Notes: generated from the sequence alone by a model not told the origin. Shown: positions 9,301-38,702, counted from the stretch's first letter. The stretch is DNA of 64,000 nucleotides from an uncultured bacterium (GCA_964562525.1 CAZLTL010000009.1:11352-75351), one strand, 5' to 3'. Translations and numbers: made by a program.

Positions 9301-12300
9301 TCCTGGGTATAGTCAGTGGCTTCGGAGTAACTTTCCTGGTTTGGATGATATGTTGTCAAAGTCTTTGAGAGCTCTTTGCCGGAAGCGTCGGCAAGAGTTT
9401 GAAGCTCAGAATCAAGCTCATATTCTGTGCCGTTCGGGCGGATCGATTGAACCCATTTCACAGAAAGCAAAAAGTCACTTGTGAGATCAAATTGACGATA
9501 TGTTTCTGTTTTTGTATTTATTCCATTGACTACTTCGTAGGTAAATGCGCTTTCTTGTTCGTAGGTTAGAGTTCCGTTCGCAGCAAAATCACTTAAAATT
9601 TGACGGCTGTATTCTGTTGATGTTGCATCGAGATAAGTTGTGATCTGCTTGGAAGTGATGCCGTTTGGAATTTTGTATTCATAGTATGTTTCGCGCCCAG
9701 CTGAATCTTTCAATGTAGTAAGCGTATAGTTGTTACCTGTGACCACGGTCATTGTTTGCTTCGTGATGCCAGCAGCATCTACCCAAGACCCAAATTCTTT
9801 CGTGTAAGAGCCCATTACTTCAAAATTCTTATTGAAGAAGTAATAAGTGTGAGTTGGCTCGACATCGGGACACGCCCCAGCCCCAGAGCAGTCAGGTGAT
9901 CTGCGTAATAGCTGATAAGCTGGCATTTCCCCAAAAATATGATCTGCGATTCCGCTGAAGGTAATTTCAGTTTGAAATTGGACCTGCGAACCGTCGGCGT
10001 TTTTCCAAACGATTGAGTTTCGTTGAATATCTTGTACGCGGCGGATACCAATTACGTTGTTATTCTCATCAAAATAAGATGTCTCCGTCCAATTCTCACC
10101 GCCGTCCATAAGGTCAGAGCTGTGACTCCCCGTAATAACTGCGTAATTGGCTTGTCTTCCAAAAATAGCATGGATTGTCAGGTTTTCGCCTGCGGAAATA
10201 TCAAGCCGGACATCTTTTTTCAATGGGGCAACAATAACCCGACCATCTTCCGCGCGATAAGCCTTGTAGTTGTTCTCGCTGACTGAAAAATAAACCGCGC
10301 CATTTTCGACTTTTACAACATTGATGGACATCATTTGCTGGAAAACAGAGGCTTCTCCGACAACGTTATTGATAGCAATCATTTTCATCGGGCAAATTTG
10401 ACCTTCAGGGCACACATTCATAGCGGCAAATAGTAATTCAGCATCTTTGCCCGAAACCATGGCACCGTTGTAGTCAACATTCATGGATCCGGAAATTCGG
10501 GTTCCGTCCGCGTTGAGTCTAAAGGACATGGAGCCGAATGAACCCGGCGCGGGCGCAACCATAGTACACATCATGTCTTCGGGGCATTGGAAGCTGCGGT
10601 CAATCGAAACTAAATAAGTGCCATCTTCTTGAAGTGAAGCATTAATTCTTGTGTTGTCGTTTCCGAGCTGGTCTCGAATGGTTTGAATATAACTTGCGAT
10701 AGCCGGAGGTAATGAACCATTATCATTTTGTTTCTCAAGTACAACCTGTCCGCTTTCATCACGGAAGGCTTTGTAACTATTTTCACCTCTTGAAAAATAT
10801 ATCGCTCCAGCTTCGACTCGAGTGACAGAAGTTTTTGTCATTTCAACCAGCGTTTCCATGTCGGTGATGAATCGTGCTGAAATCATTTTGCCGTTATCAA
10901 CCGTACTTTCTTTGATTAAAGCTTGGCGCAATCCTTCAAAGAGCAATGTTGCATCGTTTTTTACTTTGTCCCCATAGAAGCTTACTCCGATAGATTCGGG
11001 TAATACGTTCCCATTTTCATCAACAGCGAAGCTCATCGATTGAAAGCCGGATGTGGGTTGCATGAGCCATTCTTTCGAATCAGTTACGCGGATAGAAAAA
11101 AGACCATTTTCTACTGTAATGGAAACAGTCAAGCCGTCGCCGAAAGCGGCTTGGTAGGCTGCCACTGCAGGCGGCAATGTAACCTCGTCCAGCGAAATTT
11201 TTTCTCCGTTGGGTCCGAACCATTCTTGCCGGCTTCCCCAATAGTTCAACGCGTAACCAATCATTTTTTTATCGTCATCAAAGTATTGAATTGTGTCAGG
11301 ACGCATGACTTGAGCGCAGGCTTCGCCTGTGCAGTTCGCTCCCGAAATGGTTTTTTGATAAACAGGCGTTTGTTTGAAAGCTTTTGTTGCATCTTCGAGG
11401 AATTCCGTTGCGTTAACAAGTTTGAGATCTCTTGCTTGCCCCCAGCGATCAAGGTGCGCGATGGGATTTTTATCATCTTCGGGGACGTACACAAGCGTAT
11501 AACTTTCGATGGTTTGCCCGCCGGTTGCTTGGCTTACATTGGATACACGGCCCAAATAACTGCCGGAAGCCGAGTAATAAAAATGATCTGTGGTGTCGGA
11601 GCCGGTGCATTTGGGCGGGATTGATTTTGTGCAAACAATGCCGATGTCCGAGTCTTCTGAGCGGACATAGGTCGTTGTTTCTCCCAAGTAGTCCGTTGCG
11701 ATATGGTCGGCTCCGGGGTCAATGGCTCTCAAAGGTTCGGATGAAGTGTATGAGCCGTCCTCGTTCTTTTTGACTGCATAAAAATATTCCCCGCGCTGAA
11801 TCACAAACTGTGCATCATTGAGGGTCCCGCTTACAAATTTAACTTCTACATTGTCGGAAGTTGTCCAAACCGTTACTTCCGGGGTGGATGAGTTGTATTC
11901 CATCTTTCCTAAATAGGACCCATCCGCTGAGGAGTAAGTTGTTCTTGTGTCATAGCAAGGGTCTTGATCGCAAACAAGGTTTGTCTCAACTCTTTTATAA
12001 ATAACAGGGTGAGTTTCTTTGTTGATATCCAAAATCACGGTGGTTTGCTCTGATTCGGTTCCTTCTACTTGAGTCTGAGGCTGTTGTGTTTCCGGAACGG
12101 TGAAGCTGGTTGACGTTGTGCCTGAAAAGGATACGTAGTTGTAATAATCGTTTGAAGCGATTTCAACATAGTAAGTCTGGCCTTGTGACAGCCCGCTGAT
12201 GTCGATGTCTTGCGAGCAAGAGCCATAGCTGTAGCAATTGCTCAAAGAAGTTTCGCTAATCTGGTTGTAGGACGAATCTTTCAAGCGCAGAACTAGGTTA

Positions 12301-13103
12301 GGGCTTGTACTGCTGTAGTTATAGAAGCTGACATTGGCTGTCGTCGGATTTGATTCCGAAGTTAAAACATTGAGCGATTCGATGTTGACATAGTTGTAGG
12401 AAACGGGGCTGGTGTAGCTGTAATAAGATGGATCAACATAGGTTGTGTCGTAATAATAGGAATAGCTTGTGTCCGGAGCCGTGCCAAAGCTTGTGGATGT
12501 TGTCCCTGAAACGGAGGTGTAACCGTTTGTACTGGGCGCAAGAATGTTTACTGTGTAAGAAGAGTTTGGGCTAAGTCCGCTAATGGATGTTGAGCAATAT
12601 CCATAGCAGTAGAGCGATGTTTGAGTTTGAACATTGTTATATACATCTCTTACTTCAAGTGTGATGTCTGAGTAATTGCCTGACAAGTTAACATTGACCG
12701 TAGCGTCGGTTGATCCCGCGGAAACATCCATTGACGATACATAGATATTTGTAATGGGCTCAACGACCTGGGTTTGACTTGTTGTTTCTGTTGTTGACGC
12801 CAAGCTTGTGTCTTCCTGTGTAGTTTCATCGGTACCATATTGATTTTCAGCACCACTTTGATCTACAGCGCTGACGACCTGGATAGAGCTTTCCCAAGAT
12901 TCTCCGGTTTGTATTTGCTCTTGGCCTTCCATATGTTCGGCCAAGTCGGGATTTTGTGGTTTATCAATAGACACACCTTGGCTGTCTAAAGCGGGGTCAG
13001 TTGCAATCATGTCAGCCGCAAAGCTGAATTGGGTTGGCGAGAAAGCGAATGTGAATGCCACAGCAAGCGCTGTGATCTTCTTTGCGGCTGTAATCAATTG
13101 CAT
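3390..13103 (-). CDS. Giant secreted protein (3237 aa): signal peptide, Tyr/Ser/Thr-rich tandem beta-sandwich-like repeats, duplicated ~170-aa units, YD/RHS-like repeat stretches, three copies of a ~90-aa 'GDDIL...VTLDG..Y.I' module, and a C-terminal ~800-aa coiled coil
   Basis: ORF-track ORF. N-terminus MQLITAAKKITALAVAFTFAFSPTQFSFAADM is a signal peptide. Tandem repeats '...TSLY/SNCYSYG.CS..ISGLS....Y.V.I......Y.SVSGTTSTSF' occur at aa ~115-330. The pair 'GSFGSMSFRLNADG...' / 'SGFQSMSFAVDENG...' and the pair 'NGAVYFSVSENNYKAYRAEDGRV' / 'AGAIYFSRGENSYKAFRDESGQV' are duplicated. YD-like strings include ETYYEYKIPNG, TTYHPNQESYSEATDYTQDG and HLGRLVKEETTYSWGDRYTYVHNY. Heptad-rich text begins at aa ~2400 (EELEALRSVMLEKTQDEINKNEAAMADLGNRIAEAERLLEAKKLE...). 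No TM segment after the signal peptide. Confidence 0.8.
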   Translation of the reverse strand: MQLITAAKKITALAVAFTFAFSPTQFSFAADMIATDPALDSQGVSIDKPQNPDLAEHMEGQEQIQTGESWESSIQVVSAVDQSGAENQYGTDETTQEDTSLASTTETTSQTQVVEPITNIYVSSMDVSAGSTDATVNVNLSGNYSDITLEVRDVYNNVQTQTSLYCYGYCSTSISGLSPNSSYTVNILAPSTNGYTSVSGTTSTSFGTAPDTSYSYYYDTTYVDPSYYSYTSPVSYNYVNIESLNVLTSESNPTTANVSFYNYSSTSPNLVLRLKDSSYNQISETSLSNCYSYGSCSQDIDISGLSQGQTYYVEIASNDYYNYVSFSGTTSTSFTVPETQQPQTQVEGTESEQTTVILDINKETHPVIYKRVETNLVCDQDPCYDTRTTYSSADGSYLGKMEYNSSTPEVTVWTTSDNVEVKFVSGTLNDAQFVIQRGEYFYAVKKNEDGSYTSSEPLRAIDPGADHIATDYLGETTTYVRSEDSDIGIVCTKSIPPKCTGSDTTDHFYYSASGSYLGRVSNVSQATGGQTIESYTLVYVPEDDKNPIAHLDRWGQARDLKLVNATEFLEDATKAFKQTPVYQKTISGANCTGEACAQVMRPDTIQYFDDDKKMIGYALNYWGSRQEWFGPNGEKISLDEVTLPPAVAAYQAAFGDGLTVSITVENGLFSIRVTDSKEWLMQPTSGFQSMSFAVDENGNVLPESIGVSFYGDKVKNDATLLFEGLRQALIKESTVDNGKMISARFITDMETLVEMTKTSVTRVEAGAIYFSRGENSYKAFRDESGQVVLEKQNDNGSLPPAIASYIQTIRDQLGNDNTRINASLQEDGTYLVSIDRSFQCPEDMMCTMVAPAPGSFGSMSFRLNADGTRISGSMNVDYNGAMVSGKDAELLFAAMNVCPEGQICPMKMIAINNVVGEASVFQQMMSINVVKVENGAVYFSVSENNYKAYRAEDGRVIVAPLKKDVRLDISAGENLTIHAIFGRQANYAVITGSHSSDLMDGGENWTETSYFDENNNVIGIRRVQDIQRNSIVWKNADGSQVQFQTEITFSGIADHIFGEMPAYQLLRRSPDCSGAGACPDVEPTHTYYFFNKNFEVMGSYTKEFGSWVDAAGITKQTMTVVTGNNYTLTTLKDSAGRETYYEYKIPNGITSKQITTYLDATSTEYSRQILSDFAANGTLTYEQESAFTYEVVNGINTKTETYRQFDLTSDFLLSVKWVQSIRPNGTEYELDSELQTLADASGKELSKTLTTYHPNQESYSEATDYTQDGTVARKEISHVSYDGNWNILNKIVTVETPVLRTEKRSQYFLPSDMVKEHMIEKQSDGKLILENITIKRTEQNGDKLRVEINLISSIIVVHLFTADGKNASGYTGFGVRANHPLLANLNAATSLEEFIKTTAALSKGSEVAGKLITDHFFRKEDGSWSETPLYRSVIENLQTSRYFLVVGNADSNPGTGDDIELNVTPNNLRLEDRNAIISWSFPVINGETGLQPFGVVIYDMGKNTFVEYPKQAQVELNGIKYNIKMTNNGGVTLEEAVKKLDVSAEENTTAETLFEKKAAYKTENEDKSVATYFDANGNLLGTKTILKPDEQTTVTTWRGIQGNTKQIISIYVSESETKTTVQDHLGRLVKEETTYSWGDRYTYVHNYIDDTQVKSETLWTIHDSEGKLTNESRYFFRKDSNGADITITAGRDIFMGLTPPSTVWVETTEYYFWFESSVTNSDGSRTTTAFTTREMSEEDFAKVTADLTMETALQIAAYKSISNYPENSNQFDSRLTYSNDGSANWDQKPLVQDSFTGGKYTAYAIVGTPDSPMGSGDDILIKYNQPKVSVNGKNYYANWFTPWGIHGSTVGIYFQNASTGKSVFAAFPKESRVTLDGVLYEISLNKDGVIELKQMIEKPFEIVLPASTDGGQNNLKVSVALDGTATVTWYGTQYSGTFDPDTKQINLSIKNKLDYKEYDYILHTEEKAVEPVDSSFPVISDEDKQALSSQMVEMWYPYYYEGEKTWTLQLSESLNSVISFERKEERSYWNHASSSTTYYNENGMIEAESWFTSYYKNGYSSGKTSYTYTLVNGQQKIASIISHTANHDYYYKRPIEVEQYDNLRPIEKPAITNEEIDRAYKPDVEYYRPIWRPYYPASESTTKTFYAYDAEGNYSQIISVSSSTVNGETTYSGNYTNYVTAGYWQTDQGCYKAPCHPDTWVSVPPHIVQYASATITADVFNAINSSGNHELIDQHARIKTEYHFSGDANKWEGLKFSVTYARGENGLTPRFVQMADYQTGYIVVGQVDLLAGTEQRSDDILIRNNQNFGDYSITFGEAYEQTMELVVYSPTTDGSESVMKPSPYTPKYLGYGLVFSKWGQKEDGSYGQTTALVDYPAVKTVTLDGRLFNVEINDEGNVKLQDVKEELEALRSVMLEKTQDEINKNEAAMADLGNRIAEAERLLEAKKLEINASVEELIQKLKGMLADLEKALESDDIRTETRFQIEAQAAEMRSYLDNTVQGEIDALIQYTIHSFRHLLDMEAAGRNNHAQNLIAYQNSLQNADSLEALRDLEGKLPELFFDGIYIEPGVDPIEKMRAFAGAMNQTLEQVKTDKIRFAMQLSYTQQSIAQAMQVSMQIPPVINQDDMPAMDRKFADTVTAVRAAITRLATWLQENGYTQSDESAPTEFSAVYGPQKAKDVERQAMQGLANFYENLMMRSVQITSFRGNVGEKMLVPVSELVNALIGEMNALGLDRWSSPEDYLKLKGLTTGDVGDFNPGDGVFMPSVFDNIMYDMLPGPSLKDLRNMVIRFVSKPDSSSLFAGATRINTNLFRILIQGGRAEAAKAILAVYEEAALKAGINFEAQPEIVIKSIKIISSSENNFSLKLEFTASGGKTLQATMNMTLAAGLKVSDTIITSPLFEFETARNELLGRIDSAQADNDSLLAGLIASLEEMKRLADQRVGEFGAEINALKTRLEALMTEMQKVVDSDRPNTPAIDAIAEKLSEMRFFLDNTLEQEKEIFESFLHYGALASLKSEIAAHQMLANDLITYQEKISAATSAEELETLKMEFPVLAPIALEPMAMPIDPREVMSQMIAEGEDLMSAIANKLPEGAVALSQVEQDLAVSVLGLSNEGTLYKTTEKTAVNCITTPCPSDIITDKLYSQDGKVIGFKVLQDNYAKFYAADENGNMGELKQTLELVKDPTELNFVKTLLMDRTAEYRGAFWTMWEQMRESLTPIYIDQEDEDARRKRLQQA

Positions 13104-13352: not shown

Positions 13353-16300
13353 ATGCGAATTAAAAAGCTTACAAGTTGGTTTTTGACTATATGTCTGCTA
13401 ATAACACAGATATTGACGCCTGATCTTGCCCAGGCAGCTAGTCTCGTTTTTGCTCCCGCGCAAAGTGAGGCTCAATCGGTGGCGGCTTGGGAGCCATCCA
13501 CGTTAACCGGCAAGGTTACCCAGCGTGTTCTGACCGAGAACTCAAAGGGTACGATTATTCACATTCAAGACGCGCATGCTGTCTTTGAAGCTCAAAAAAA
13601 CATCCAATCGCTAATTGCCCAAGTCAATAAGGTCGCCTCAGCTGAAGCTATTTTCATTGAAGGCGGTATAGGTAAGTTGGATCCCCAAATGAAGCATTTC
13701 TTTCCGGATGGGTTAACGCTCAATCCCGAAACTCGCGAAGCATGGATGAAAGAAGGCCATCTTACCGGTGCGGAAGCTTATTTAATGGAGAATCAACGTG
13801 CGCGCGGATTCGGAATCGAAGAAATGAAAAGTTATTGGGATAACGTCGAACTTTATCGTCGTGTCGATGCCATGCAGAACGAAAGCGCGGAGTTTCTTAA
13901 AAGCTGGTATGAAGTTTGGCAGGAAGAAGCCGGAAAAAATTTTAAACCTTCTCTTAAAAAATATTTACAGACGTACGCCCAATCACAAGTGGAGGTTTCG
14001 GCTTCCGCGCTTTGGTTTGATGCCTTAAGTGAGTATATCAAGGCCGAATGGAATCGCGATTTGAGCTCAATCGAAGAGCAAATCGAGTTTCCGATGCTGA
14101 CACGTTATATCTATCTTAAAAAAATGGATGGCACGCCTGATTTTTCAAAAATCGAAAAGCAAAAGCAGGAATTTTTTGCTTCGCTAAAAGGCCTAGACCG
14201 GAGCCCGTCAACAGATTCCATTTTTCGTGAAATCGACAACCTTATCGAAAAATCCAAAACTGAGGCGATTGATTTTTCCGGTGCGCGCGAAGCATTTGAA
14301 CAGCTTGCTGCATATTTACCGGACGATTTTTCTATTGAGCGCTGGCCCGACTTAAAAAAACTGATCGAGCGGATTATTCTTGCGGGTGAAATGGATTCAG
14401 AAAAACTTCTGCGTGAAGCTAAACGGCTTCATATTCAGGTTATCAAAAAAGATGCTCAGGCAAAAACACAGCGAACACTGGCGCTTTTACTTGAAAAGCA
14501 GATCTTGCTTACCAAGCTCTTGAGTTTGGAATTAACCCGTGAAGATTTTCAAAAAACTTTAGATCATCCCGCGCAACCTCAAGAGTTAGCTGCGGAATTG
14601 GAGCGCATATCCAACAACGCTCCTGAAGCTGCAGGACGCATCTTCGGTAGTGCGCAAAGTGGCTTTACAAAAATTAATCAAACATACAACCAGGCTGTTG
14701 CCTTTTATCAAGGTGCGATTAATCGTGAAGCGGCCATGGAGCGTGCGATCTTAGAGAAAACCAAATCAGGTCAGATTTCAATTGTTGTTACGGGTGGTTT
14801 TCATAAAGAGGGAATGGAGTCTTTTGCGCGTCAGCAAAATTGGAATTATGTCAGCGTGATGCCGCGTATTTCAAAAATTCAACCCGAAGATTTCGCTCAT
14901 TATCGCCGCGCGCTGTTGGGGGAAGGCAGCGCGCGCAGCGAAATGGGCACTCCTTCGGAAGTTGCCGCCGCGCTTTTAACTAGCGCGGAAGTATTCAAAG
15001 ATCCCCGCGCCGCCGCCCGTGAGGAAGCTGCTTTGGTTTTGTCCGGCTCGGAAGAAGCAATGCGAAGGCTGGCGCACCACGACGAAGCCCGCAAAGGAAA
15101 AAATGCACCTCGCATGAAAAAAGCAGCGGAGCGTCCCAGAACAAGTGACCGGCCTCTGTCTGAGTGGGAGGGCGCGCGCGCTCGTCCGTCGGCCCGCTCA
15201 GAAACGCGACTGCAAGAAGCAATTCAAAAGCTCGACCAGTGGAAGTTGCGGCATCAAGGATCCGATATTCTTGAGCGTTATGAATCCGATCCTTTTATGA
15301 CCAGGCTTGAGGCTCAAGCGTCATTAATATTTAAACAGCTGCGCTTGAATGAGCTGACCGTAGGAGAGCGCGCCCAATTTGTCCAAAGTGCATTTGGAGA
15401 TGTTCAGCCTGCCGTTTCTGACTTTGTCGCAGGATGGATTGATAGTTTTTCACCTGAAATCTTAAACAGCGCTGATCCGATTGATTACAAGGCATTTCAC
15501 CAAGTGAGCTCAAATATGTCTAATCTCGAGTATCGCTATAGCTTGATGCAAAATCAAATGATTCGCACAGCAGGCAATTTGGTATTCGACTTGAGCGAAC
15601 AAGAAAAGCGCTTTTTTGAACTCGAATATCTTTGGCATGAATTTGATAAAGAAATGCAGAAATCGGGCACGGGTGATATTCCGGTTGTTGCCGCAATGCA
15701 AGATTTGCACGGAGGCACGCGCCGAGCTTTAGGATTGATCGCAAAACTTTATGGGTTACCTCCGGATTCGTTTAAAAAGATCAAGAACTTGACTGACCTT
15801 AAGCGATTGTTGGATGAACAAAACCTTTCGACTGCAAGTTTATCCGGCAGAGTGGTGGGATTTAGCGATTTGGTTGACCGCGGTGATGACCCGGTGGGAG
15901 CAATGGAATTAGCGCGCGAGTTTAACGAAAATTCACTCGGACGATTCATTTTAGGAAATCATGATTTATGGAGAATCATGGGTGTCTTAGGTGTTCATCA
16001 ACTTTTCGGAAAAGAAAAAGAAGAAGATTTTGATGTCACGGAAAAAGCGGATCATCCCGCTTGGTGGGCCTGGGAAGCGTTTCATCATGCCGGATGGGGA
16101 GACCGAGAGCTTGAGCAGTTGAATGAACGGCGCATCAACAGTCGTATTCGTGAAGCGAACTCGGCTATTCAGCGGCATAATCAAAGCTTTCCCGATCAAG
16201 CGCAACTCCTTCTTGAAGAAGTCAATTTGGAAGCTTTTGGTGAGGAGTTAAACAAAAAGCTGAAAGAAGCTAAGAAGAAAAACGAAGCTATTCGCGGGGC

Positions 16301-19300
16301 TTGGCAAAAAGCGGTTGTGGACGAAGATAAAGCTGCTCTTGCCGATTCTCGTCCCAAGAAAACAATTCGTGAACCTGAGTTTGTTCCTCTTCCTGATGTG
16401 TTTCAAGAAACGTTGAAATACACATATGAGGTGGTGGAGAAATACGAAGAGAGTGTGCGCAAGTTGAAGCAGCAAGGCGTGGATCTCGCGACCGACTTTA
16501 AAAGCATTCGCGTTGTTACGCGTGACAATTACCAACAAGACCCCGATGTTTTGAACAATATGCTTTGGCAAGTTCAGAAATTTCGTCTTTTTTATATTGA
16601 TATTTTAGGCAATCTTCACATGCATAACATTATTCCCATGGATTATGAAGCTGGAGGTATGGCAGTGCATTATCGCGGATTGGATGGCATTGCGGCGCTT
16701 GAACTCATGACCAAAGATATTCGAGAATTTTTTGAACAAGTGACAATTGATGATTTGATGGGACCGCCTGAAAAAATTAGTGAGTTTAGGCAGCGCATGT
16801 GGAATGCCGTAGGCGAAGCTTTTACGATTATTAACTCATGGTATTCCGACCGCGTTCCTGTCGCCAAAGCGATTGCTGTTCAGAAGTTTATTCAGGAGGG
16901 AAATATTGAGTGGTATTTGGGTTCGGCAGGGGCGTTTGTTGATCGTGAAATTTCTGGAGTTGTTTTTTGGGGGCACAATGAAGCCAAGAAATTTGTTGAA
17001 GCTAATTTGGCCCGTTTCATTATTTATCCGCAACATGGATCCGGGCTTATCAATATTGATGGAGGTATGTCCAAAGGTTATGAAAATCGCGGGCTTGAAG
17101 TTACCTTTGGTCTTCGGAATGAGGCCGGACATATTCAGGGGTTACAGGCTTGGGGATATCACTCCAAAGGAACTGATCAAGACACTGAAACGGTGGTGGA
17201 TTTAACTCGATCGGGTGAGTTAACCGATGCGATGAGCGATGAGCAAAAAGTTCTATTGGGGCATTTGACCCACGGTCCTACTTATTTGCGTTGGCAAAGG
17301 CATAAAATTTTAACTCTGCTTGATCGCGGCTTAGAGTCTTTTCTTCGGTCTTCCACCGGGCAGCGTCGTGAAAAAATTGTGAAATTGCGAAAGCTTCAAA
17401 AACACGTTCATGAGCATTTAAAATCAGACAAAGATCCTTTGAGGTCGATAGAAGCGGTTCGATCGATAGCGCCTGAAGAAGCGGTTCAAACGGTTGATTT
17501 TTCGGTGATGGATCAAATTGAGAGCGTGAAGACTTGGAAAGAAGCGTTTTCCGTTATTGAAAAAATTTTAGCATTACCCACGACTGATCTTGCCGTTGCA
17601 GCGCTTAAACGGTTTATTCTGAAAGTTCGTTTTAATGGCGCAGGATTTGAGTTTGCGCAAGAACACTCCTCCGACGACTATTCCGATGATATTTACGAAA
17701 AAGGACGCGAGCTTGGAGAGAAAATCATTGAAAAATACGCGGATCATCCCGAGCTTGTGCGCCACTTCGTTTTTTCAATGCCTTTTGATTTGGATCGTGA
17801 CAAGAAAAATAAGCGAGAGCTGTGGGGGCTTGCTGCGGATTTTGATGATCGTTGGATGCGTGACGAAGATGGAGGTGAAACCGGGTATGCGAACACGCTC
17901 CGTCGTCTTATTCATCGCGCCGGATTCAGTTTTTCAAAAGCGATGGAATTAGTCCAAGTTTATATTGATTATTTGACGAACCCTAAAACTGATGGTGCTT
18001 GGGAAAATGTAAGGCGCGTTGCCGTCGTTAATTTTCCGAGTGCGGCGGACAGAGAATTGCGCGACGAGGTTCAGAAGCAAATGTCTCAAGGCAAATCCTT
18101 AGGACAAATTCAATCCGAGCCTTTTCAGATTTTGTGGGACATGCGAGAAAAAATTTTGCTGGCTCAAAATGGAATTCGGCACAAAGAATTCTTTGATCGT
18201 TGGCAGCGATCTTTGTTAGCTCAAACGCACCCTGAGATTCAGCCTTGGATTGATCGAATTCTGAGACCTCAGATGCCGCGTGATGATCTCTATGCAGTAA
18301 ATGAAGCGATGAACTGGGTGAGCGAGCTTGGGAAAAAGCAGCTGCCACCTGAGATTCGCTACGAACAAATACATTTTTATCAGTCGCTTGGATCCATACT
18401 GCAAGATTTGATCCCTTCTTATTTGGAGGGAATCAGTGAATTGCCGGATATAGAACGCTTTCGGCATATCGCTGAAGTTGTTGTTGTTTTGCAGCCGATG
18501 TTAAACCGGTTGCGAGACCAAGGATATTTGACTCGCGATAGTAAAGACTGGATTGTTTCGCTTCAGGAGTCGTCGCTGCAGCTTGATCAAATTTATGATT
18601 TACTTCAAAAAATCCGAGAAGACATCAGCTTTTTCACGGGGAAGTTTTTTGATTCTTACAATCAGGAGGCGCATTTACTTTTTGGCGAAAACACGGTTAC
18701 TTTAGAAACAACCTTAAATATGCTCTTAAAAGAAGAGCAAGAGGTAAAGTTAGCAGGGCAATTGATTGAGGTTTTATCTCATGCGATTCAAGGTATGCCG
18801 ATGGAGTATCGACAGAGGAAATGGCGCTCGTTGTCTGATGTGTTTCCATCAACCCAAGATGCGCGCCCCCAAGGGCATGCGGCATTTGCGTTTTTTAACC
18901 AACCTCAAATATGGATGAATCAAAACACTCGCCGCATATGGGGTGGAGAAAAAGCATCAGTGCTTGCTCTTGCGCGGAACCGCTTGGGCGTTCCGGTTCC
19001 GCCGGGTTTTGTGGTTCCTGCAGATTTTTTTATGACTTTGCAGACGTCGCAAGCGTGGGGTCAATTCAATCAAGAATTAATTCGCGGCGTTCATCAGATT
19101 GGAAAAGAATGGAATGATGCTTCATCCGAGCAGCTCCGCTTTGGAGATCCGGATCGTCCGCTGTTTCTTGCCGTTCGTTCCGGATCGACGTTTGTGATGC
19201 CGGGGCAATTAGCAACTTTTATCATGATTGGGATGACGAGACCCATTTTAAAAAAAATGATTCAGTCAGATTCTCCCAAAGAAGGATATTTGGCTTACTA

Positions 19301-22300
19301 CTATTTTTTATTTTCGGCGGCAGAGCTGCTGGATATACCTTCCGAAGAAATGCATCAGCGTGTGAAGACTTACCTTGAATCAATAAATGAAGCCAAGGTG
19401 CAGGATCTTCAAATTGAGCAAATGAGAAAATTAACGGAGTGGATGGAGCGTTTGTTTGCAGAAAAGCAAATGGGTGAAAACCTGGAAGATCTTTTGGCGT
19501 ACCCGGACAAACAACTTTTTCTTGCTGCCAGCAAAGTCCGTCAGTCTTGGGATGACGAACATGCCCGCGCTTATCGAGTCGAGAATAATATTTCCGAAGC
19601 GTGGGGAACTCCGCTTATTGTGCAGAAATATGTTTTAGGAAGTTCAGAAAAGAAATCTGGTTCAGGATTGGCGCGTTCGAGAAATTCGAAGGGCGAAAAA
19701 ATTTTAAACGGTGATTGGCTTGCTGCCGCGCAAGGCCTCGACTTGGTAAGCGGATTCCAAACGCCGCGCAGTTTAGATGCATTAGCGGAAGAACAGCCGG
19801 TTATTTATGATCAGCTTCGTCAAATGGTGGAATCTTTGGAGGCGTATTTTGGACGGCCGGTATTGGTTGAGTTTACTGTTTCGAATGGCCGACTTTGGAT
19901 CTTGCAAGTTTCGCGAGATAAATCAGTGAAATCATTAAAGTTGCCCGCTCTTTATTTGAAGGATTTGCGACAGCAGACTATTTTAGGGCAAGGAGCATCT
20001 GTTTATGCTTCAAGCGGTGGTTTTCGCGGCAAGGCTGTTTACGATCTTTTGTCAGCGTTTGACGCAGATGGAAGATTGAACTCCGGATGGTTGCAAGAAA
20101 TTCAACAGCAAAAATTGGATGGATTAATTTGGATCGTGGAATCAATGACCCCTAAAAAAACAGCCATGATGCTGAAGGCAAAGAAAGAATTAGAATCGCA
20201 GGGATTGCGTCTGGTTGTTGTGAGCTCTGAGGGAGGCGCTTTATCGCATGCGGCAACCTCAGCGGCAGAAGGTCAAGTTCCTGCGGTTGTGGGTGTTCAG
20301 CAAATGCAATTTTCTTCGGGAGAGGTCAGAGTTTTAAATGGTGCGGTTCTTCTGCCTAAGTCGGTTTTGACGATTAAATTTGACAATGGTTCTATTTATT
20401 ATGGACGGGTTCCCTTAGAGTTAGAGCGATCGGAAGCGCGCTCCGAAATACGGCTTCCGAAAAAACCGGAATGGCTTGAAGATAAAGCGCGCGCGAATTA
20501 TGAAGCGATTTACGGCAAGAATGGGTTTTTAGATTCGCTGGAACATAAAATCGAAACCAACCGTAATTTAAGAAAGATGCTGGAGTCGGCGGAAATTTTG
20601 GTTGTAATTCCGATCGCGAATGAAAAGTCGTGGGCGCGCACCAGCAATTTAATCGATGATGTCCGCCGTTACGCCCGTGAAAATAGTGCCAAAAAATTGA
20701 AAATTGTGGCGATTGCCGAAGAAGGTAGCCCTACGGCGGTCAGGTTAGCGCCCAGACAAGACGAAGGCTTTCAAATTTTATATAAAGACAAAAAAGACCA
20801 GGGGAAAGGCGCCTCGGAATTTGCGGGAATTTATTTGGCATCCCGATCCTTAAAAAAAGGACCGGAATATTCCGGAGCGCAAGCGGTCGTTTTTTTAGAT
20901 GCTGATTTGAAATTGAGCAATGGGCAGGAAAGCGCTAAAAGCTTGCTGGGTTCTTTGATCTCAGAAATTGAAAAGCATCCCCACTCCGCGATGGTGCTTT
21001 TGCACGCGCTGAAGCGCCGATTCTCGGATGATGATGGCTTGGCACATTTTTGGACTTTGGCTTTTACGGAAGCGCTTTATGGGCTTTCCTTTTTTCAGTC
21101 ACATGGCGGTGAGTTTGCTGTTTCCCGCGAGGCCGTGAAAGCGCTTTTAGAATCCGGAAAATCCGGCGATGAGCCGGCGATGAGCGTTCACGATGTTTAT
21201 GATCTTGAGCATCCGCTGATGCTGCGTCTTGCTTCGTTGATTTCTCGGAAAAAGCTTCCGGAAAGCTACTTGGTTCAGCATACCAAAGTTTACAAAGACC
21301 ATACGGAGACAGAGCCGGAGCGTATTTTTAAGCGCATGGAAGAAGAGTTAATCCCCAGACTTTTTGAAACAGCCCTTTCGGATCAGGATTTTATTCAGGC
21401 TCGTCCCGATTTAAGCCAAAATCTTTTTTATGATGAGGATGGTCTTAAACGGCGTGTTCGGGATAAAGAAGTGAATACCACAAAATTTTTTGATATGGCC
21501 GGTTCCTTTTTACAAAATCATTTTCATGAGCTGGAACCGCTCGCGCACCTTGACCGCCACCCGGAGCTGGAGCCCTTTTTGAGAGGTCTTGAAAGTGAGC
21601 GCGCCCAAATTCAATCCGCGGCTATGGCGCGCGATTACATTCACTTTGAGTTTCATCCCGTATTTTTTGGACAAGTTACCCGCAACGCCCTTTTTCTTTT
21701 TGCGGCTGAGCCTGAAGAAGAAAAGCGTAAAGATATTACGCGGCGGTATATGCTCTTCGTCAAAGCTGCCTTTTTTGACTATGCGGCAACTATTTTGAAA
21801 GAAAACCCGAACGCGTTGCTTTTGGATGTTGTTCTGAACCGCAAAGACGCGCCTTTTGCACAAGCAATTGAGGGCGCTTTTCGTTCCGAAATCCGCGCGG
21901 GCAAGCCAAGCTTTTTATCGAAGGTTCAAGGACACGTCGACGGAAGGCTGCTTTTTGCCGGCGCGTTTGTTTTGGGAATCGGGCTTTTACAAACCATTTT
22001 GGGACTTGCGGCTTTTAAGGTTGCGCTTGGTCTTGTGGGAGCGGCATTGGTCGGAGTTACTTTTTTCAGTGCCTTTCGCGGAATATATCTCGATGCGAAA
22101 AGGAAAGCAAAGCTCGCCCAAAATGAACGTTTTGCCGACCTTGAAAGAAAGCATCAGCTTCGCAGCAAAGTTTGGACGGCGTTGGATGCTTGGCCCGCGC
22201 CCGCGATTCAGACTTGGATTGAAAAAGAGGAGTCCGCGGCGATTCCCGATTTATCTCAAATTCGTGATCACTATGTTTTAGGTGCTCTTCACTTCAAAAA

Positions 22301-25300
22301 AGCCGCCGGCTATTTTCGCGCGGGAATGGATGCGGAGCTTTCAAACGCAGAGATTGCGCGAGGCATACGCTTTGAATTAAAAATAGCGCGTGATGAATTT
22401 CAGCGGGTTGATTATGACCGCGACGCGGGCGTTCTTTTGAATGCGCTAAATCGTCTTGCGCTTGATTCAGAAGAACCGTCACCGGCATTAATTCACTTTG
22501 TTGAATATTTTATTTTGGCGCGTCTCAGGGCTCAGCCGCGCAAAGCTTGGGCTGATGCACCGCTTCCTCAAGGCGGATATGTGCTTGGGAAAAATCCTAC
22601 TTCCGCCGAGCTGAAAAATTATCTGCTTCCGCTCAAGAAAAACGCCGTTGTTTTTCTGCTTCCCGGTGAAAGCAAAATCGCGTTTAAATTGAAACCGCTT
22701 TATCGCGATTTACGCAAAAATAAAAATAACATCCGCTTTGTTGAGCTTAAACCGCAAGACTATGCTTCGCGCGAAGCGCTCATCGATAAAATCCGCCAAA
22801 CTGATTCGGAAAAAGCAGATATTTTAATTACACCTTTTGCCGGCTTGATGCCCGAAAAAAACAATCCGTATCCTGCTGAACTTCAACGTTATTTCGAAGA
22901 TGCCAAAGATTTGTATGAAGTTGAAATCGGAAAGCGGGTGGATCAAATTTTTTATGAAACCGATCTTGTCCCAACACTCGCCAATTATTTTGTCGCAGCA
23001 GATGAAAAGACGGCTCGAATTTCTTCGCAGTCATTATTTGAAGGTCATAAAACACAAGAATTTCGCACCCCTTATTCCGTTATTACAGTGCTTATGGCTT
23101 TTGTTGCGGGCACTTTGGGCATGAAGAAGGGCATCTTAAAATTCTCAGAAAAGCCTACGCTTGCGGATGCGTTTTACCGCACAGGCATTTACGGAGATGA
23201 GCGTCCTCAGCAGCCGAATGAGCCCTCCAAGCTGCGGCGTATTTTCTTGGTTTCGCCGCATCCCGACGACGATGTCATTGCCGCAAAAGCAGTGCTTGCT
23301 GAGGCGATGAAATTAGCCCAAGAAGGCGAAGTCGTTGCGGAAGTGATTGTGATGCAGCCCGGCGAAAACGGGGTGGTAGATTTAAATGAAACACAAATGA
23401 AAGAGGCGCTGCGGCTAGCGCTAGGATATGACGCGGGAGATTTGAATGCAGCGCGCGTTACCGAACTTAAAAAAGCATGGGGAAAAACTCTCATTGAAAT
23501 CCGCACCCTGCACGAAAATGTTTTAGCGGAATATAAAGAGCGTTATCCCGCGGCGGCTGAAAAATTTAAGGCAAAACTAGAGACTTTCAAAGGCGTTGAT
23601 TTTGATGCCTTGTTTGATGCTGCGGCAAACCAAGCATGGAGCTATGAAGAACTGGCGAAGTCGGGAATCCAGAAGAAAGAAATAAATCAAGCAACCCAGG
23701 CCTTGTTGAAAGAAACAGCGAAGTATTTTATTCGCCGTATTGAAAATCAGCGCGCAATCGACTTTTTTAATGAGGCTTACCCGGGAAAAATTCGCGCCCA
23801 ATTTTTTCCCGAGTTTTTAGGCTACCCTTCATCGGGTCCGCAAGACTTGCGTTTCATTCATGAGCTTGAAGAACATGCCGCAGTCGTGCTGCAGCATTTA
23901 TTGATGAAATTTGAGCGCTCAGTAAAAGACGCGCCGAAGGAGGCGGTCATTAGTATTGTGGCGCCGCATCGTGTGGATAGTCATCCCCATCATGTCGGCT
24001 CTTGGAAAGTGATTAATGAAGCGATGAAGCTTTGGTCGACACAGGCATCGCGTCAGTCAAGCCGTGACGTGGAAGTGCTTTATTATTTCGCCCCATGGTC
24101 GGGCAATTTACCTGCATACCATCTCTCGCCGCAAACAAAGAAGTCAACCAATGCGGATTTATTGCGCGCCTTAATCGCCGGCGAACTTACTGCTTCGCGC
24201 TTTGGTTTGCCGTCACCCAAAGAATTACAAACCATGCAGGCCCAACGTTATCTTGTTCGCCCCTCCATTTTGAATGCTCGTTCAGAAGTCCGGAGTAACA
24301 GGCAGGAGAAAAGCACGAAATTTTTTCTTGCCGCGGCGGAAGCCCTTAAAAAAGGGGATCGTCGGCGATTTGAGTCTGAGAAAAGCAAATTGGAAAAATT
24401 GGGCATGCGTGTTTTGGCGGTGGGCAATTCTGAATTTTTTCCTGAAAATTGGAAAACAAAAAGACCGCGCGTTTATACCCGCGCGGAACGCGAAGAAGTT
24501 TTGCGCCTTGTGACCGCTAAAGTTAAAAAAACGATGACGCCCCAAGAAAAACGGCAATTGCGCGTGACGGTTGAAAGCCAAATTCTTGCGATCGGTGAAG
24601 ATGAAGTGGGTTTAATCGGGGTGCAAAATTATGCTGAAGGGGAATCTTCAAAATTTAATGACCCTCATTTACAAGTTGTTAGCGCTTCGGATTCATCTCG
24701 CTTGGAATCCATGACGCGCCAACTTGCGAGCGGTTTTATGAATATGACGCAATACGGCGGAGCCGCAAACATAGAATATCAAGTTCAGTACTTATGGTGG
24801 GGCGGGACAGAGGCTTTTACCGCGACAAGCGAACAATTGCATGGCGGATCCTACAGTGAGGTTCACCGTTTTTTTAATCCCGATGGAAGTTCGCATGTCG
24901 TTAAAACCGCCGATCCTCGCAAAGACGGCGGCAAGCTTTTGAATGAAGCTAAAATGATACAGTCTTTGCCCGAAGATGCCGCTGCTTTTTTCCCCAAAAT
25001 CTTGAAAGTGATTGATCAGCCTGGAAAAACGGAAGTTTGGATGGAGGATCTTCAGGGAGCAAGCCTTACGGGACTCATTAACAGCGCGCCGGGAATGGTG
25101 CATATGTCGCGGAAAGAAGATTTGTTAAGCTTTTCACCTTTTGTGGTCGCGCGGCAAATCTATAGTTTGTTGTTGGGTATTTTTTATATGCGCAAGAAAA
25201 GTGATACACCCGATGACTTTGCGGAGAAATACCATTTCTCAAAGCTTGAAAAGCGCTGGCAGGAAGCCGAAGCCGTTTCCCCCGCGTTTAAAAAATGGAT

Positions 25301-28300
25301 AAACGCGCCTTATGTGAAAGTTTACGATCATCGAGGACAAGAGCATCTTCTGCCTAATTTTAAAATGATGCTTCGCATCTTCAGAGCTTTAGCGAAGGCC
25401 TATCCGGATTATTTCAAGCCCCCGTATTTATCTTACGAACACGGCGACTTGCATTTTGGCAATATCATGGCTGATATTTTTGATGTCATTTCTGACAAAG
25501 CCTTGCTTCGATTTAAACTCATTGACCCCAAGTGGATGCCGGAGGGGAATGACCCGCTTTATGATTTTGCGAAATTACTGCATAACTTATTCGGACATTA
25601 TGACTTGGCTTTGGATCACTCCGACACCTACCATTTCAATATGCAAGATCCGGGCACATCCGCGGATCCGTTGGAGATGAGCGATTATGTGGATGATGAA
25701 GCAGTTGGCACGCTGGAAATGCTTGAACGCACGCGGCAGTTTCAAATTGAAACATGGGATTTTTTGCGCACTCATCGCGGCGCAGCTTTTCCTTTCGAGA
25801 AGGATCCGGTGGCTTGGCGCGTTCGATTACTTTTCACGGAAGCATCATTGATCGCGGGACTTTTCCCTTTTCACATTAAGTCCTTGGAGAAAACCAGCAT
25901 TCTCTATGAGCGCGCATTGACGCTTTTCAATAACACGATCGGATTGTTTGCCAGCCTTCAGGACAGCTCTTTGATTCCGAGTAAAGATAAAAAACTGCGC
26001 AAAGCTTTGAGGAAATTAATTTCAGCCCAGCAAGCGGTAAATGAACCTGCCTTTGTGAAAGCCTTGAGTCAAGTTGATAGCCTTGTTTCCGCCCGCTCGG
26101 AATCAAGAGAGCGTTATCAGCAAACACCGGAGCAGGTTTCGAAAATGGTTTATCCGTTTCAATCCATTGCGCATATTAGCTATGAAATGGCGCCGTTTTT
26201 TAAACGAGGTGGGCTTGCGGATGTGGCGGGGGACTTACCGCCTGAGATGATCAATTTGCGACCCGGTATGGATGTTGCCATGGTGATGCCTTATCACAAA
26301 GACTTGAAGTTAGAAGGCAGTGAGTCTCCGCGTAGTATCGGCAAGTTGGAGTTTGAAGAAAAGGAAACGCGCGAAAAATATGAATTTGAAATTTTTTATT
26401 TGAAGCATCGCGGCGTGAATGTTTTCTTTCTTGCGCATCCCGATTTTTTTCAACTGGGCTATAACAATCCGGATGCGGACCGTGAGCGAATCTTTTTTGC
26501 TAAGGCAGCGACCGAGTTTATGGTTCAGCGCAATTTGAAATTTGATGTAATTCACGCGCACGACCAAGCGGCCGCGCTCGTGCCCGCCTTTGTGCGCTAT
26601 ACACGCGATGATTTTTTTAAAAACTCAGCTGTCATTTACACCGCGCACCATTTTTCACCCGCTTATCAAGGGCGCATGGATTTGTCTAAAAAAGGAATGT
26701 TGACTTCTCTGGGAATGCCCGATGAGCTTTTCAAATTGGGTGGGCAAATGGAGTTAAACGGTCATCTCAATCCTGTCAAAAGCGCGATTGAAGTTAGCGA
26801 TTTTGTCACCACCGTAAGCCAGGCCTTTGCCGTAGACGCTGTTTTTAGCGGTTTAAGCGATGGACTGCAAGGCTCTTTGCACAAGCGGTTTAATGAAAAA
26901 ACATTGGTGGGTATTAATAATGGCATGAACCTGGATCTGTGGCGCCCGGATGTGGCGCCCGGAGTTGAAATTCCATTTAGGCCGGATGATTTAACCGATG
27001 GTAAAGCTGCCAACAAAGCGGTGCTTCAGCAGGCTTTGGGGTTAGCGGTTAGCCCTGCAGCAATGCTTGCGACCATGTTTGCCCGCTTCGATGGTGTGAA
27101 AGGTTTTGATATTGTGGCGCAGGCTGCGGCTCCGCTTTTGTATCAGTTCAAAGATTTGCAGTTTGTTTTTGGCGGAGGCGGTGACCCGGCGATTACGGAT
27201 CAATTGCTGGGAATTCAAGCCGACCCGCTTTTTAAGGGACGCATGGTGGTGATACCGCAATTTGTGAGCGAAAGCGTGATTCAACGTGTGCTCGCTGCGG
27301 CGGATATCGGCTTTGCGCCTTCACGCGTTGAACCGCACGGACTCTTTCAGCTACAAGCGAAACGTCTTGGTGCGACCCCCATTACTTCCAACGTTCATGG
27401 TCTGGGTGAAACCGTTTACGATCGCCGGCATGGCGATCTTTTACAAACCGGAATTAAGTTTGGTCTTGGTCAACCCGCGTTAGAGCTTGGAGTCGGCTTG
27501 GCGCGTTTTGCAACTATGCGGGAAGTTGCGCCTGAGTTTGTACGAAATATGCGCGACGATGCCATGGGCTCCGTCCGCTCATGGCAGCAAATTGCTCCCG
27601 AATATTTTGATCTTTATACTCAAGCTGTTCAAAACCGGAGACAATTTATTCAAAATCGATCCGAAGCCCGCACGGTTGACCCGGTTAAAGAGCCTGTTTT
27701 TGATCAGCAAGGCTGGAGTCAGCGCGAACGCGAAGAAAGTCCCGTCGCTGTTCCGTCCCCGCAAACATTTAAAGGGAAATATTTTGTTGTTTTAGATGAC
27801 AAAACTTACTTGCTTGAAAGCTATGAGCAAATACTTAAAAGCCACGGCGCTGAGAATGTTTTGATGGGCGCTTCATCCGAAGATGGATTGCGGCTTGTGG
27901 CTGAATTAAAAGCCAAAGGTGTTGCGGATGAAGATATTGTTGTGATTACGGACTATCAATTCAAGGGTGAGGACACGGCTCTCAATCTGATTAACTTTTT
28001 GCGCGCGCCTAAAGACCAAGCTGTTTTTAAAGGCCCTATTTTAATTGTGTCGGGCAGTATCGTGAGCCGTCACGAAATACCCGGTATTCAAGAAGGCAAG
28101 TTAAGCGAAGAAATGCATAAAAAATATGGTTTGGCTTATCTTGAAAAAAACGGCGGTTATTATTTCCGTGAACAGCTTTTAGCGGCTTTAGGCGAAGTGA
28201 TCAAAAACCACGTTGATGCGGATGCCTTTGCTCGTGAGCCCCTTGCAGTAAAAACGGCAGAAGAAATGCAGATCCCTCAGGCTCAAGTTCATTTGCAGGG

Positions 28301-34058: not shown

Positions 34059-34096
34059 ACTTTGTTCTTTGTTCCTTGTTCTTTGTTCCTTATAAT
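34059..34096 (+). promoter_or_regulatory. Short tandem repeat (tttgttc/tttgttcc x4-5) immediately after the giant-gene stop, embedding a candidate sigma70 promoter (-35 TTGTTC 34069-34074, 16-nt spacer, -10 TATAAT 34091-34096) for the downstream gene, possibly giving a leaderless mRNA
   Basis: Sequence 34059-34105 reads actttgttctttgttccttgttctttgttccTTATAATtctcgaactATG; the ATG at 34106 lies only ~10 nt after the -10 box. Confidence 0.3.
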
Positions 34097-34105
34097 TCTC
34101 GAACT

Positions 34106-38673: not shown

Positions 38674-38695
38674 AGACCAAAGACAAACGAAGAAA
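38645..38695 (+). repeat. Short tandem repeat (ctaaagac/caaagac units) spanning the tolC-like stop codon
   Basis: cagaCTAAAGACTAAAGACCAAAGACaaacgaag read directly. Confidence 0.4.
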
Positions 38696-38702
38696 ATTTT
38701 TT

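Follow-up and report, generated by a model that had tools for sequence, protein, structure and literature searches.

Giant and large modular proteins fill a large share of the small genomes of the Omnitrophota (Candidatus Omnitrophica). Among them, the 'Archaeovorins' carry family 5 and family 1 glycosyltransferase (GT5, GT1), pyruvate-phosphate dikinase (PPDK)-type, fructose-bisphosphatase and other glycolytic domains that are predicted to be extracellular, a result for which the authors warned of an overlooked transmembrane (TM) helix as a possible cause and suggested post-translational cleavage (West-Roberts et al. 2023, 10.1101/2023.11.21.568195). A 2026 preprint (10.64898/2026.06.07.730766) that applied DeepTMHMM to 916 long Omnitrophota proteins assigned 39% of them a signal peptide plus TM helices, a topology that contradicts the intracellular reading of their metabolic content. 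In both papers the 'metabolic' domains are placed outside the cell by prediction, and in both the possibility of a prediction error is left standing; the predatory and epibiotic context of the phylum is summarised in Seymour et al. 2023. Here we describe a protein of 6,901 residues (hereafter the giant) that poses the same puzzle, encoded in a window of 64,000 nucleotides from an uncultured bacterium (GCA_964562525.1 CAZLTL010000009.1:11352-75351; positions are counted from the window's first letter), in which ATP- and nucleoside diphosphate (NDP)-sugar-dependent modules follow a general secretory (Sec) signal peptide and flank a single membrane hairpin.

The window derives from an Omnitrophota genome, since its AcrB gene is 99% identical to that of Candidatus Omnitrophica bacterium UBA2337 and the next-closest genes come from other Omnitrophota metagenome-assembled genomes (MAGs). 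In addition to the phylum, the giant shares with the Archaeovorins and other Omnitrophota giants the mix of GT5 starch-synthase, GT1, PPDK-type and phosphatase-type domains, an N-terminal region without identifiable domains, and membership of the signal peptide plus TM class, with the same extracellular-metabolism puzzle. We find that it is a member of a very large unnamed modular family, present in multiple copies in Omnitrophota genomes. The family design, as read from sequence, is a short, apparently cleavable Sec signal peptide, an N-terminal module (N-module) of ~480 residues, variable cargo with RSExR motifs at the joins, a C-terminus ending in -[A/S]-A, and almost no cysteine. By the same reading, the topology paradox is a property of the whole family, that is, of thousands of proteins, and not of the giant alone.

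The gene is a single open reading frame (ORF) on the + strand, 13353-34058, that remains open over 20.7 kb from its ATG start to its stop and comprises 6,901 codons. The interval originally flagged, 13353-22075, is not a unit: it covers only codons 1-2,907 (42%) of this frame, and the gene is 2.4 times as long.

Signal peptide, hairpin and topology

The giant begins with MRIKK-LTSWFLTICLLITQIL-TPDLAQA followed by AS, and both its sequence features and comparison across the family identify aa 1-28 (13353..13436, + strand) as a Sec-type signal peptide with a predicted cut between A28 and A29. The original prediction had proposed a Sec signal peptide with an AQA/AS site, and the features agree with it: an n-region of charge +3, an uncharged core of 16-17 residues, Pro at -6 and Ala at -3 and -1. 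The 16-residue h-region lies at the upper edge of the norm of about 7-15 residues for cleavable signal peptides. Regular-expression searches of the first 30-40 residues found neither a lipobox ([LVI][ASTVI][GAS]C) nor a twin-arginine motif. Among 151 family members the n-region has a mean net charge of +3.1 and the h-region a median length of 12 residues (interquartile range 11-13), while the c-regions that follow, on inspection of the listed N-termini, commonly read ..YA/AP (for example ..SLAYA/AP) or ..FA/Q. A strong N-terminal hydrophobic core is present in 125 of 150 relatives by a strict hydrophobicity criterion. Family-wide h-regions of 12 residues with small residues at -3 and -1 are the pattern expected of signal peptides that are cleaved.

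The only strongly hydrophobic internal stretch, as had been predicted for nt 21945-22075, is a Gly-rich helical hairpin at aa 2866-2908 (21948..22076, + strand), identified from hydropathy (Kyte-Doolittle 19-mer maximum 2.25), Hessa sums and relatives. It reads LLFAGAFVLGIGLLQTILGLAAF-K-VALGLVGAALVGVTFFSAF, with helices at aa 2866-2888 and 2890-2908 joined by a one-residue loop (K), and crude Hessa-scale sums of +0.6 and +0.2 kcal/mol. Its flanks are net positive, with +3/-1 and +5/-1 charges per 15 residues against a Lys plus Arg (K/R) background of 13%. The hairpin is kept with the same charged flanks in one relative, P0004; in another, P0016, the homologous domain comes after a TM pair. A third TM helix would reverse the side of the C-terminal half, but the candidate at aa 3239-3261 is too weak to be accepted (+3.9 kcal/mol for aa 3239-3257, with ~15 apolar residues), and a further hydropathy peak at aa 4561-4579 falls within the conserved glycogen-synthase core.

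Downstream of the signal peptide, the chain reaches its first enzyme module without any hydrophobic segment that could bring it back into the cytoplasm. A signal peptide combined with an even number of membrane passes would therefore place every enzyme module outside the cytoplasm, in line with the topology first proposed. One escape offered by the original prediction, an uncleaved signal anchor with the domains left in the cytoplasm, fails on orientation: the charge of +3 lies before the core, and K/R are absent from the 30 residues that follow it, so the pattern predicts N-in/C-out whether or not the peptide is cleaved, and an uncleaved anchor would still leave the domains outside. It fails also on strength, as the best 19-mer of the core, at about +4.9 kcal/mol by a crude Hessa sum, is too weak for an anchor. 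The premise that an N-terminal anchor would put the bulk of the protein in the cytoplasm is flawed for the same reason, because an anchor of this charge pattern puts the bulk outside.

An N-terminal module that marks a large Omnitrophota family

Residues ~50-527 (13500..14933, + strand) form a conserved N-module, recognised by its invariant residues, with a core like that of the Tiki/TraB/ChaN/erythromycin-esterase proteins and a large helical insert. The residues that are invariant across the family, IQDAH75, E79, E103-G (EAQ, EG), R458 and GGFH484, give the order His, Glu, Arg, His, which we take to be that of the active site in the Tiki/TraB/ChaN/erythromycin-esterase superfamily. The likenesses listed for the module are the erythromycin-esterase-like structures 2rad and 2qgm, EreC, a TraB-family protein, ChaN, and the secreted effectors HopBA1 and RRSP (structure 5w6l). 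The N-module differs from the Tiki, TraB-PrgY, ChaN and erythromycin-esterase proteins in its ~300-residue helical insert and in its first motif, which is QDAH rather than GxxH. Its membership of the superfamily is likely but not proven. Neither Pfam nor NCBIfam recognises the module, and Foldseek against the PDB returned only non-significant matches, to helical sensor domains and, on the helical insert, to ClyA-type pore-forming toxins (E>=0.07, TM-score ~0.1), which were not used.

The size of the family was determined with a profile built from the giant and three relatives (word-indexed matches to aa 1-620) that was searched exhaustively against 1.84 billion representatives. It matched 9,077 representatives at E<=1e-3 and 5,601 at E<=1e-30; the word-indexed search, which had given only three relatives for the N-module and none for the hairpin module, thus proved to be limited by sensitivity. 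Each of those three relatives has a signal-peptide-like start, and P0003 is built of a signal peptide, the N-module, RSEMR, an S-adenosylmethionine-dependent methyltransferase and more RSExR motifs. Family statistics were taken from the best 150 of the 9,077 relatives, comprising 375,043 residues. With few exceptions (including P0048, P0129, P0135 and P0140), the best match in these begins no later than about residue 60. Family proteins range from 436 to 7,984 residues, and all members with a source name come from Candidatus Omnitrophica/Omnitrophota, three of them from within one MAG.

Modules are shuffled as a mosaic between relatives. P0004, a protein of 5,456 residues from the protein database, matches the giant over aa 1-1285 at 57% identity, over aa 2844-4252, hairpin included, at 78% and over the C-terminal region of aa ~6294-6901 at 30-32%; neither the glycogen synthase nor dikinase module 2 is present in it. 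Other sets of the giant's modules recur in P0016 and P0017. Most cargo in the family is too divergent for Pfam. Where cargo was recognised, in 41 relatives, it includes PPDK_N, APH, methyltransferases, adenylate kinase, PdxA and an NAD-dependent dehydrogenase, as well as SNF2 and DEAD helicases and the RNA polymerase alpha C-terminal domain (CTD). Such cytoplasmic-type cargo makes little sense in the periplasm and does make sense in the cytoplasm of another cell. Downstream of the gene for P0017 (4,559 residues; JAYTHE010000003.1, Ca. Omnitrophota GFS_2494, 10001-33680) come a DEAD/ResIII helicase gene and an ORF of more than 3,366 residues, in that order, so that several large proteins are clustered in that genome as well.

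Cysteine is excluded from the giant and its relatives

The giant contains two cysteines in 6,901 residues, one at aa 14, inside the signal peptide, and one at aa 5710, whereas the other 21 ORFs of the window average 0.94% Cys (binomial P~1e-25 for the giant's depletion). The family as a whole is similarly poor, at 0.113%. As a matched control we used the 120 free-standing glycogen synthases closest to the giant's GT5 module, one from Omnitrophota included; their mean Cys content is 0.88% and all 120 have at least one Cys, against 0 in the 516 residues of the giant's module. In the EPCG motif of glycogen synthases, where Cys is 96% conserved, the giant has His4662 (nt ~27336). The two halves of the giant, divided at the hairpin, do not differ in their lack of Cys, which suggests that both share one compartment and argues against a split topology.

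Cys exclusion is a recognised mark of exported proteins (PMC2823432). At the giant's locus lie a DsbD-like gene and the gene for an exported giant neighbour with 10 C-x4-8-C pairs, so the envelope of this organism presumably forms disulphides and the exclusion is specific to the giant. These observations point to a chain that must avoid disulphides, for example to cross a further membrane unfolded. Exclusion even at a 96%-conserved, active-site-adjacent Cys argues for exit from the cytoplasm independently of topology predictors.

A junction motif and a C-terminal element recur across the family

The giant contains 11 copies of the motif R-S-E-x-[R/G], where its composition predicts 0.13, and the other reading frames of the window contain none. 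A motif scan placed the copies (+ strand) at start nt 14934, 15195, 20427, 20439, 21882, 24279, 26094, 27657, 31308, 31710 and 33471, with a doubled junction, RSEARSEIR, at 20427..20453. They sit at the borders of recognisable modules. The Arg and Ser codons vary synonymously among the copies, the Glu codon being GAA in 11/11; because the Arg and Ser codons differ, the motif is maintained at the protein level, and a repeat or recombination site acting in the DNA is ruled out. Among the 150 relatives RSExR occurs 564 times, or 1.5 times per 1,000 residues, at a median spacing of 304 residues, with the logo [A/S]-R-S-E-[V/L/M/A]-R-[S/A] and with the first copy usually just past the N-module. RSExR may be a processing or docking site. 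An end in -[A/S]-A is found in 103 of the 150, compared with 1.3% expected by chance, and is preceded by an amphipathic element of ~28 residues, often reading R[A/S]E[V/I]R-K-A-A.

Enzyme modules of the giant

The catalytic set originally proposed (kinase, dikinase-like, GT-A, GT5 and phosphatase) holds in part: the dikinase-like and GT5/GT1 modules pass Pfam thresholds, the phosphatase and kinase are putative, recognised at the level of motifs, and the GT-A assignment is unsupported. Two of these, the 'kinase' and the 'GT5', fall outside the interval 13353-22075 to which they had been ascribed.

The best-defined module is a glycogen/starch synthase, GT5 catalytic and GT1 C-terminal half, at aa 4272-4696 (26166..27440, + strand), with 145.3 bits to PF08323 (cut-off 22.7, E=3.3e-42) and 36.7 bits to PF00534 (cut-off 26.4, E=4e-9). 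It is ~30% identical to the 120 free-standing GlgA proteins and retains KRGGLADV (KxGGL), ARFDGVKG (R..KG) and SRVEPHG (the Glu of EPxG). Of the 76 GlgA columns conserved at 90% or more, 58 are kept and 18 are changed, among them GGL to HGL and the EPCG Cys to His.

Two dikinase-like modules were recognised by PF01326 and PF00391, both with an ATP-grasp domain and a phospho-histidine swivel domain, a likeness to alpha-glucan, water dikinases, phosphoenolpyruvate (PEP) synthase and rifampin phosphotransferase. In module 1 (18942..20339, + strand) PPDK_N (aa 1864-2145) is followed by the swivel (aa 2289-2329, GGALSHAA). In module 2 (29106..30578, + strand) the order is reversed, the swivel His domain (aa 5252-5320) preceding PPDK_N (aa 5380-5742), which we take to be the order found in plant alpha-glucan, water dikinases; that this module neighbours a glycogen synthase is a further likeness to them. 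The swivel His is kept in both modules. Neither contains the PEP-utilizers_C barrel (PF02896), so neither amounts to a PEP synthase or PPDK proper. Module 2 matches the NCBIfam PEP synthase and rifampin phosphotransferase models below threshold. All NCBIfam scores of the dikinase-like modules are far under the equivalog cut-offs (58 bits against about 600-740), and a further difference from glucan dikinases is that a starch-binding module was not found. Since KxGGL, R..KG, the catalytic Glu and both swivel His residues are kept, the modules look like working nucleotide-dependent enzymes, although the glycogen synthase has its 18 changed columns.

The remaining modules are more divergent. A charged linker (14934..15209, + strand) bounded by the first two junction motifs, RSEMG (aa 528) and RSETR (aa 615), leads into a metallophosphoesterase-like module at aa 615-1331 (15195..17345, + strand), suggested by the motifs DLHGG, DLVDRG and GNHD, by relatives and by sub-threshold matches (Metallophos PF00149 E=0.13, ApaH E=4.5e-4, lambda phosphatase E=0.22). 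The module is also present in P0004, P0016 and P0017, and its motifs (DxHG, DxVDRG, GNHD) are invariant in four relatives. A protein-kinase/APH-like module at aa 3648-4247 (24294..26093, + strand) carries HGDLHFGN...IDPK, has sub-threshold matches to TCAD9 (E=3.5e-4) and APH(3') (E=7e-3) and is 78% identical in P0004. Between the hairpin and this module, aa 3299-3385 (23247..23507, + strand) bear a sub-threshold PIG-L/LmbE-like deacetylase signature (PF02585 E=3e-4, PRK02122 E=1.2e-3). Single-sequence phmmer against the PDB gave no matches for the N-module or for the phosphatase-like and kinase-like modules.

The putative 'GT-A' corresponds to a module of unknown fold at aa 2368-2843 (20454..21881, + strand), for which hidden Markov model searches gave no matches and phmmer gave no PDB matches even at E<=10; a DAD tripeptide is the sole evidence for the assignment. 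A single-sequence AlphaFold2 model of this module had a pLDDT of 39 and was unusable.

Residues ~4790-4930 (27657-28100; KGKYFVVLDD...VVITDYQF...) resemble a response-regulator receiver domain by eye, with no Pfam match at E<=1. Receiver domains are listed among the sugar-metabolism modules of Omnitrophota giants (2026 preprint, 10.64898/2026.06.07.730766). Towards the C-terminus, aa 6125-6706 (31725-33470), for which Pfam gave no matches, align with P0004 in shifted registers (giant 6294-6697 with P0004 4377-4747, and giant 6405-6713 with P0004 4585-4874). These registers indicate that the region holds internal repeats, with putative units of roughly 100-200 residues such as ...RYRARYGYFAGVVKDFGL... 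The chain closes with a C-terminal module at aa 6707-6901 (33471..34055, + strand), recognised by the family C-terminal element, that ends in ...IFSAFASAA and is 56% identical in P0017.

The locus

The gene is divergent from that of the Cys-pair-containing neighbour (3390..13103, - strand), a Ser/Thr/Tyr-rich protein of 3,237 residues with a signal peptide; Pfam gave no matches for it, its C-terminal third is coiled-coil-like, and a role as a surface or adhesin protein stabilised by disulphides is probable. The 250-bp intergenic region between the two ORFs carries promoter-like sites, and no clear Shine-Dalgarno sequence precedes the giant's ATG as judged by eye. Downstream of the giant lie ordinary genes, for MqnA-like, M24 peptidase and TolC-like/AcrB proteins, a split transketolase, GGT, an ABC system, thymidylate synthase and the DsbD-like protein. 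The MqnA-like ORF (34019-34963, TTG start) overlaps the giant's 3' end by 40 nt; its Pfam match does not begin until residue 38, and with an in-frame Met available near residue 29 its true start is probably downstream, with the overlap an artefact of ORF listing. At 37282-41804 a TolC-like outer-membrane factor directly precedes an AcrB-type resistance-nodulation-division pump without a recognisable periplasmic adaptor gene between them, and the next ORF after the pump (42148-43215, 355 residues) is without a Pfam match. Rfam and tRNA scans of the window returned no matches.

Where the enzyme modules probably act

The conflict between topology and enzyme content is genuine, and most likely the giant works outside its producer. 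We favour the reading that it is an exported, probably processed multi-enzyme protein whose site of action would be a prey or host cell, or a leaky junction with one, and give this a probability of roughly one half. From the sequence features above we infer export of the whole chain, its processing and its delivery, as follows. The whole chain would be threaded out through Sec and its signal peptide cut at A28/A29; the Gly-rich hairpin would hold the chain at a membrane, or later insert into one, with both large halves on the same side. Disulphides would be avoided because the chain has to pass in the unfolded state through another barrier, namely the producer's own outer membrane, the prey envelope or both. 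Cleavage would probably follow at the RSExR junctions, with the N-terminal hydrolase module as a possible agent, and the ATP- and NDP-sugar-dependent modules would then act inside the prey or host of a predatory or epibiotic bacterium, or at a leaky contact zone with it. Delivery into another cell was among the three explanations first put forward; it gains support from the predatory and epibiotic lifestyles and giant surface proteins reported for Omnitrophota, together with the near-zero Cys content.

Several observations weigh against this reading. The 30 residues flanking the hairpin contain 8 K/R, where about 3.9 would be expected, and by the positive-inside rule both halves would be cytoplasmic. 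Orientation cues at the hairpin therefore conflict, the flank charges favouring flanks-in and the signal peptide and Cys exclusion favouring flanks-out; a family-wide check yielded only 9 hairpin-like regions with 5.4 flank K/R against 3.9, a modest enrichment that is not decisive, and the conflict would ease if the hairpin were destined for some membrane other than the producer's inner one. Cleavage at RSExR is a prediction, and the motif could alternatively be a structural or docking element. The glycogen-synthase, glucan-dikinase-like and deacetylase modules resemble housekeeping metabolism, unlike typical toxins. No secretion-system or protease gene linked to the giant was found in the window or beside the relatives P0003 and P0017, nor were conserved neighbour genes for secretion or processing found around any of the three.

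The flank charges, expected of cytoplasmic flanks since both sides of the hairpin are rich in Lys and Arg, are among the arguments for an unlikely alternative, a membrane-tethered cytoplasmic assembly in which translocation stalls or aborts after the N-module, or the chain is cut before export, so that the hairpin anchors an alpha-glucan/sugar-phosphate machine on the inner face of the membrane. All recognisable catalytic modules require ATP or NDP-sugars, and the glycogen synthase has kept its motifs for NDP-glucose binding and catalysis; moreover, the sugar-metabolism modules of giants with TM segments only were read as cytoplasmic in the 2026 preprint (10.64898/2026.06.07.730766), and West-Roberts et al. 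(10.1101/2023.11.21.568195) suspected wrong localisation calls for such domains. Such an assembly would nonetheless need a hydrophobic segment to bring the chain back before the first enzyme module, and there is none; the signal peptide is of the cleavable type and conserved across the family; and two Cys in 6,901 residues and the replaced 96%-conserved Cys would be left unexplained, as free-standing homologues are never Cys-free. A split topology, in which the 43-residue hydrophobic region is one stop-transfer span, would leave the first ~2,840 residues outside (N-module, phosphatase-like module, dikinase 1 and the module of unknown fold) and the last ~4,000 in the cytoplasm (deacetylase-like and kinase-like modules, glycogen synthase and dikinase 2), thereby rescuing the NDP-sugar module and two ATP-dependent modules, and the hydrophobic stretch is indeed followed directly by RGIYLDAKRKAK (+5 in 15 residues), a classical stop-transfer pattern. 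We consider it improbable: two separate segments of ~20 residues with near-zero insertion energy and a Lys between them give the usual two-helix picture, dikinase 1 would still be outside, and the C-terminal half is equally Cys-poor (1 Cys in ~4,000 residues) with its glycogen-synthase Cys replaced, which would be needless in the cytoplasm.

The arguments for export, signal peptide and Cys exclusion alike, apply equally to a coat protein that the producer exports and then keeps in its periplasm or on its surface. In such a coat the nucleotide-dependent chemistry of the enzyme-like modules would have been lost or altered, and the modules could instead bind or transglycosylate glycans, or use donors from lysed prey, on extracellular polymers. 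The 18 changed columns of the glycogen synthase and the majority of cargo diverged beyond Pfam recognition fit such a coat, and an extracellular coat and cell-wall or polysaccharide processing have been proposed in the literature for Omnitrophota giants. Against it stand the intact key catalytic motifs (KxGGL, R..KG, the Glu of EPxG and both swivel His), the helicases, adenylate kinase and RNA polymerase alpha CTD of relatives, which have no obvious extracellular role, and the ability of proteins that fold in this envelope to use disulphides, as the neighbour does, so that total exclusion of Cys suggests a further translocation step; we regard the coat as doubtful. The modules may also use unusual substrates instead of the usual nucleotides, the third of the explanations first raised. 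An artefact, whether a wrong start codon or a chimeric contig that joins to the enzymes a signal peptide not belonging to them, is very improbable. The source genome is of metagenome type and the ATG is without a clear Shine-Dalgarno sequence by eye, but the frame is open, promoter-like sites precede it, P0004 is collinear from the signal peptide to aa 1285 and again across the hairpin and kinase modules, further subsets of the giant recur in P0016 and P0017, and the combination of signal peptide, N-module and cargo is found again in thousands of proteins.

The favoured reading, export with action in or at a prey or host cell, is open to test through the N-module as a family marker, RSExR as a searchable candidate cleavage site and Cys exclusion as a compositional signature, which together make the puzzle of extracellular 'metabolic' domains testable. 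Delivery of the modules into prey would mean that bacterial predators use a new logic of effector delivery and that these proteins are a large store of secreted enzymes; a cytoplasmic location would require localisation calls based on signal peptides to be revised for the whole phylum.

Comparison with known systems

The paradox has already been discussed for Omnitrophota giant proteins, and the family-wide architecture appears to be undescribed. Keyword searches of the texts of West-Roberts et al. 2023 and the 2026 preprint found no mention of a junction motif or of Cys exclusion, and the two papers give the N-terminal region no fold. In the literature we did not find a description of a Tiki/TraB-like leader as family marker, of RSExR or of mosaic shuffling, the -[A/S]-A C-terminus not having been searched as such; full-text searches for RSEMR-type strings returned only noise, and those combining Omnitrophota with TraB nothing relevant. 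The giant is not an Archaeovorin: it has 6,901 residues where Archaeovorins exceed 30,000, one hairpin in place of dozens of TM helices, and none of their SecA_DEAD, HEAT/TPR, C39 or S8 peptidase domains as searched with Pfam.

Among the systems compared, the chlamydial Inc proteins and toxin translocation hairpins provide a likeness for the hairpin: ~40-50 residues, bilobed, with a minimal loop and, by analogy, flanks on the same side of a possibly foreign membrane. This is an analogy only, without homology, and the Inc route is type III. The large glucosylating toxins TcdA and TcdB and other glycosyltransferase and kinase effectors are exported with NDP-sugar- or ATP-dependent domains that are sensible only in the target cytoplasm, and in TcdA/TcdB a hydrophobic region serves membrane insertion. 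The giant would resemble them in combining both features; its glycosyltransferase, however, is a GT-B glycogen synthase and not a GT-A toxin domain, its target would be a prokaryote, and the likeness is functional only.

By analogy only, the design also resembles that of the MARTX toxins, which are secreted by means of a C-terminal type I signal, contain glycine-rich repeats and are cut by a cysteine protease domain. The giant differs from MARTX and other RTX proteins in its N-terminal Sec signal and its zero GGxGxD repeats; a cysteine protease domain was not detected, and its cleavage is so far a prediction. We tentatively raise the possibility, which we hold to be rather less than even, that the more than 9,000 clusters of this family form an undescribed class of exported multi-enzyme polyproteins, with a Sec signal and hydrolase leader, cut at RSExR, free of Cys and delivered into prey, where they would use the prey's ATP and sugar nucleotides. 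Such a class would be functionally MARTX-like and evolutionarily unrelated, serving predation by a bacterium on prokaryotes.

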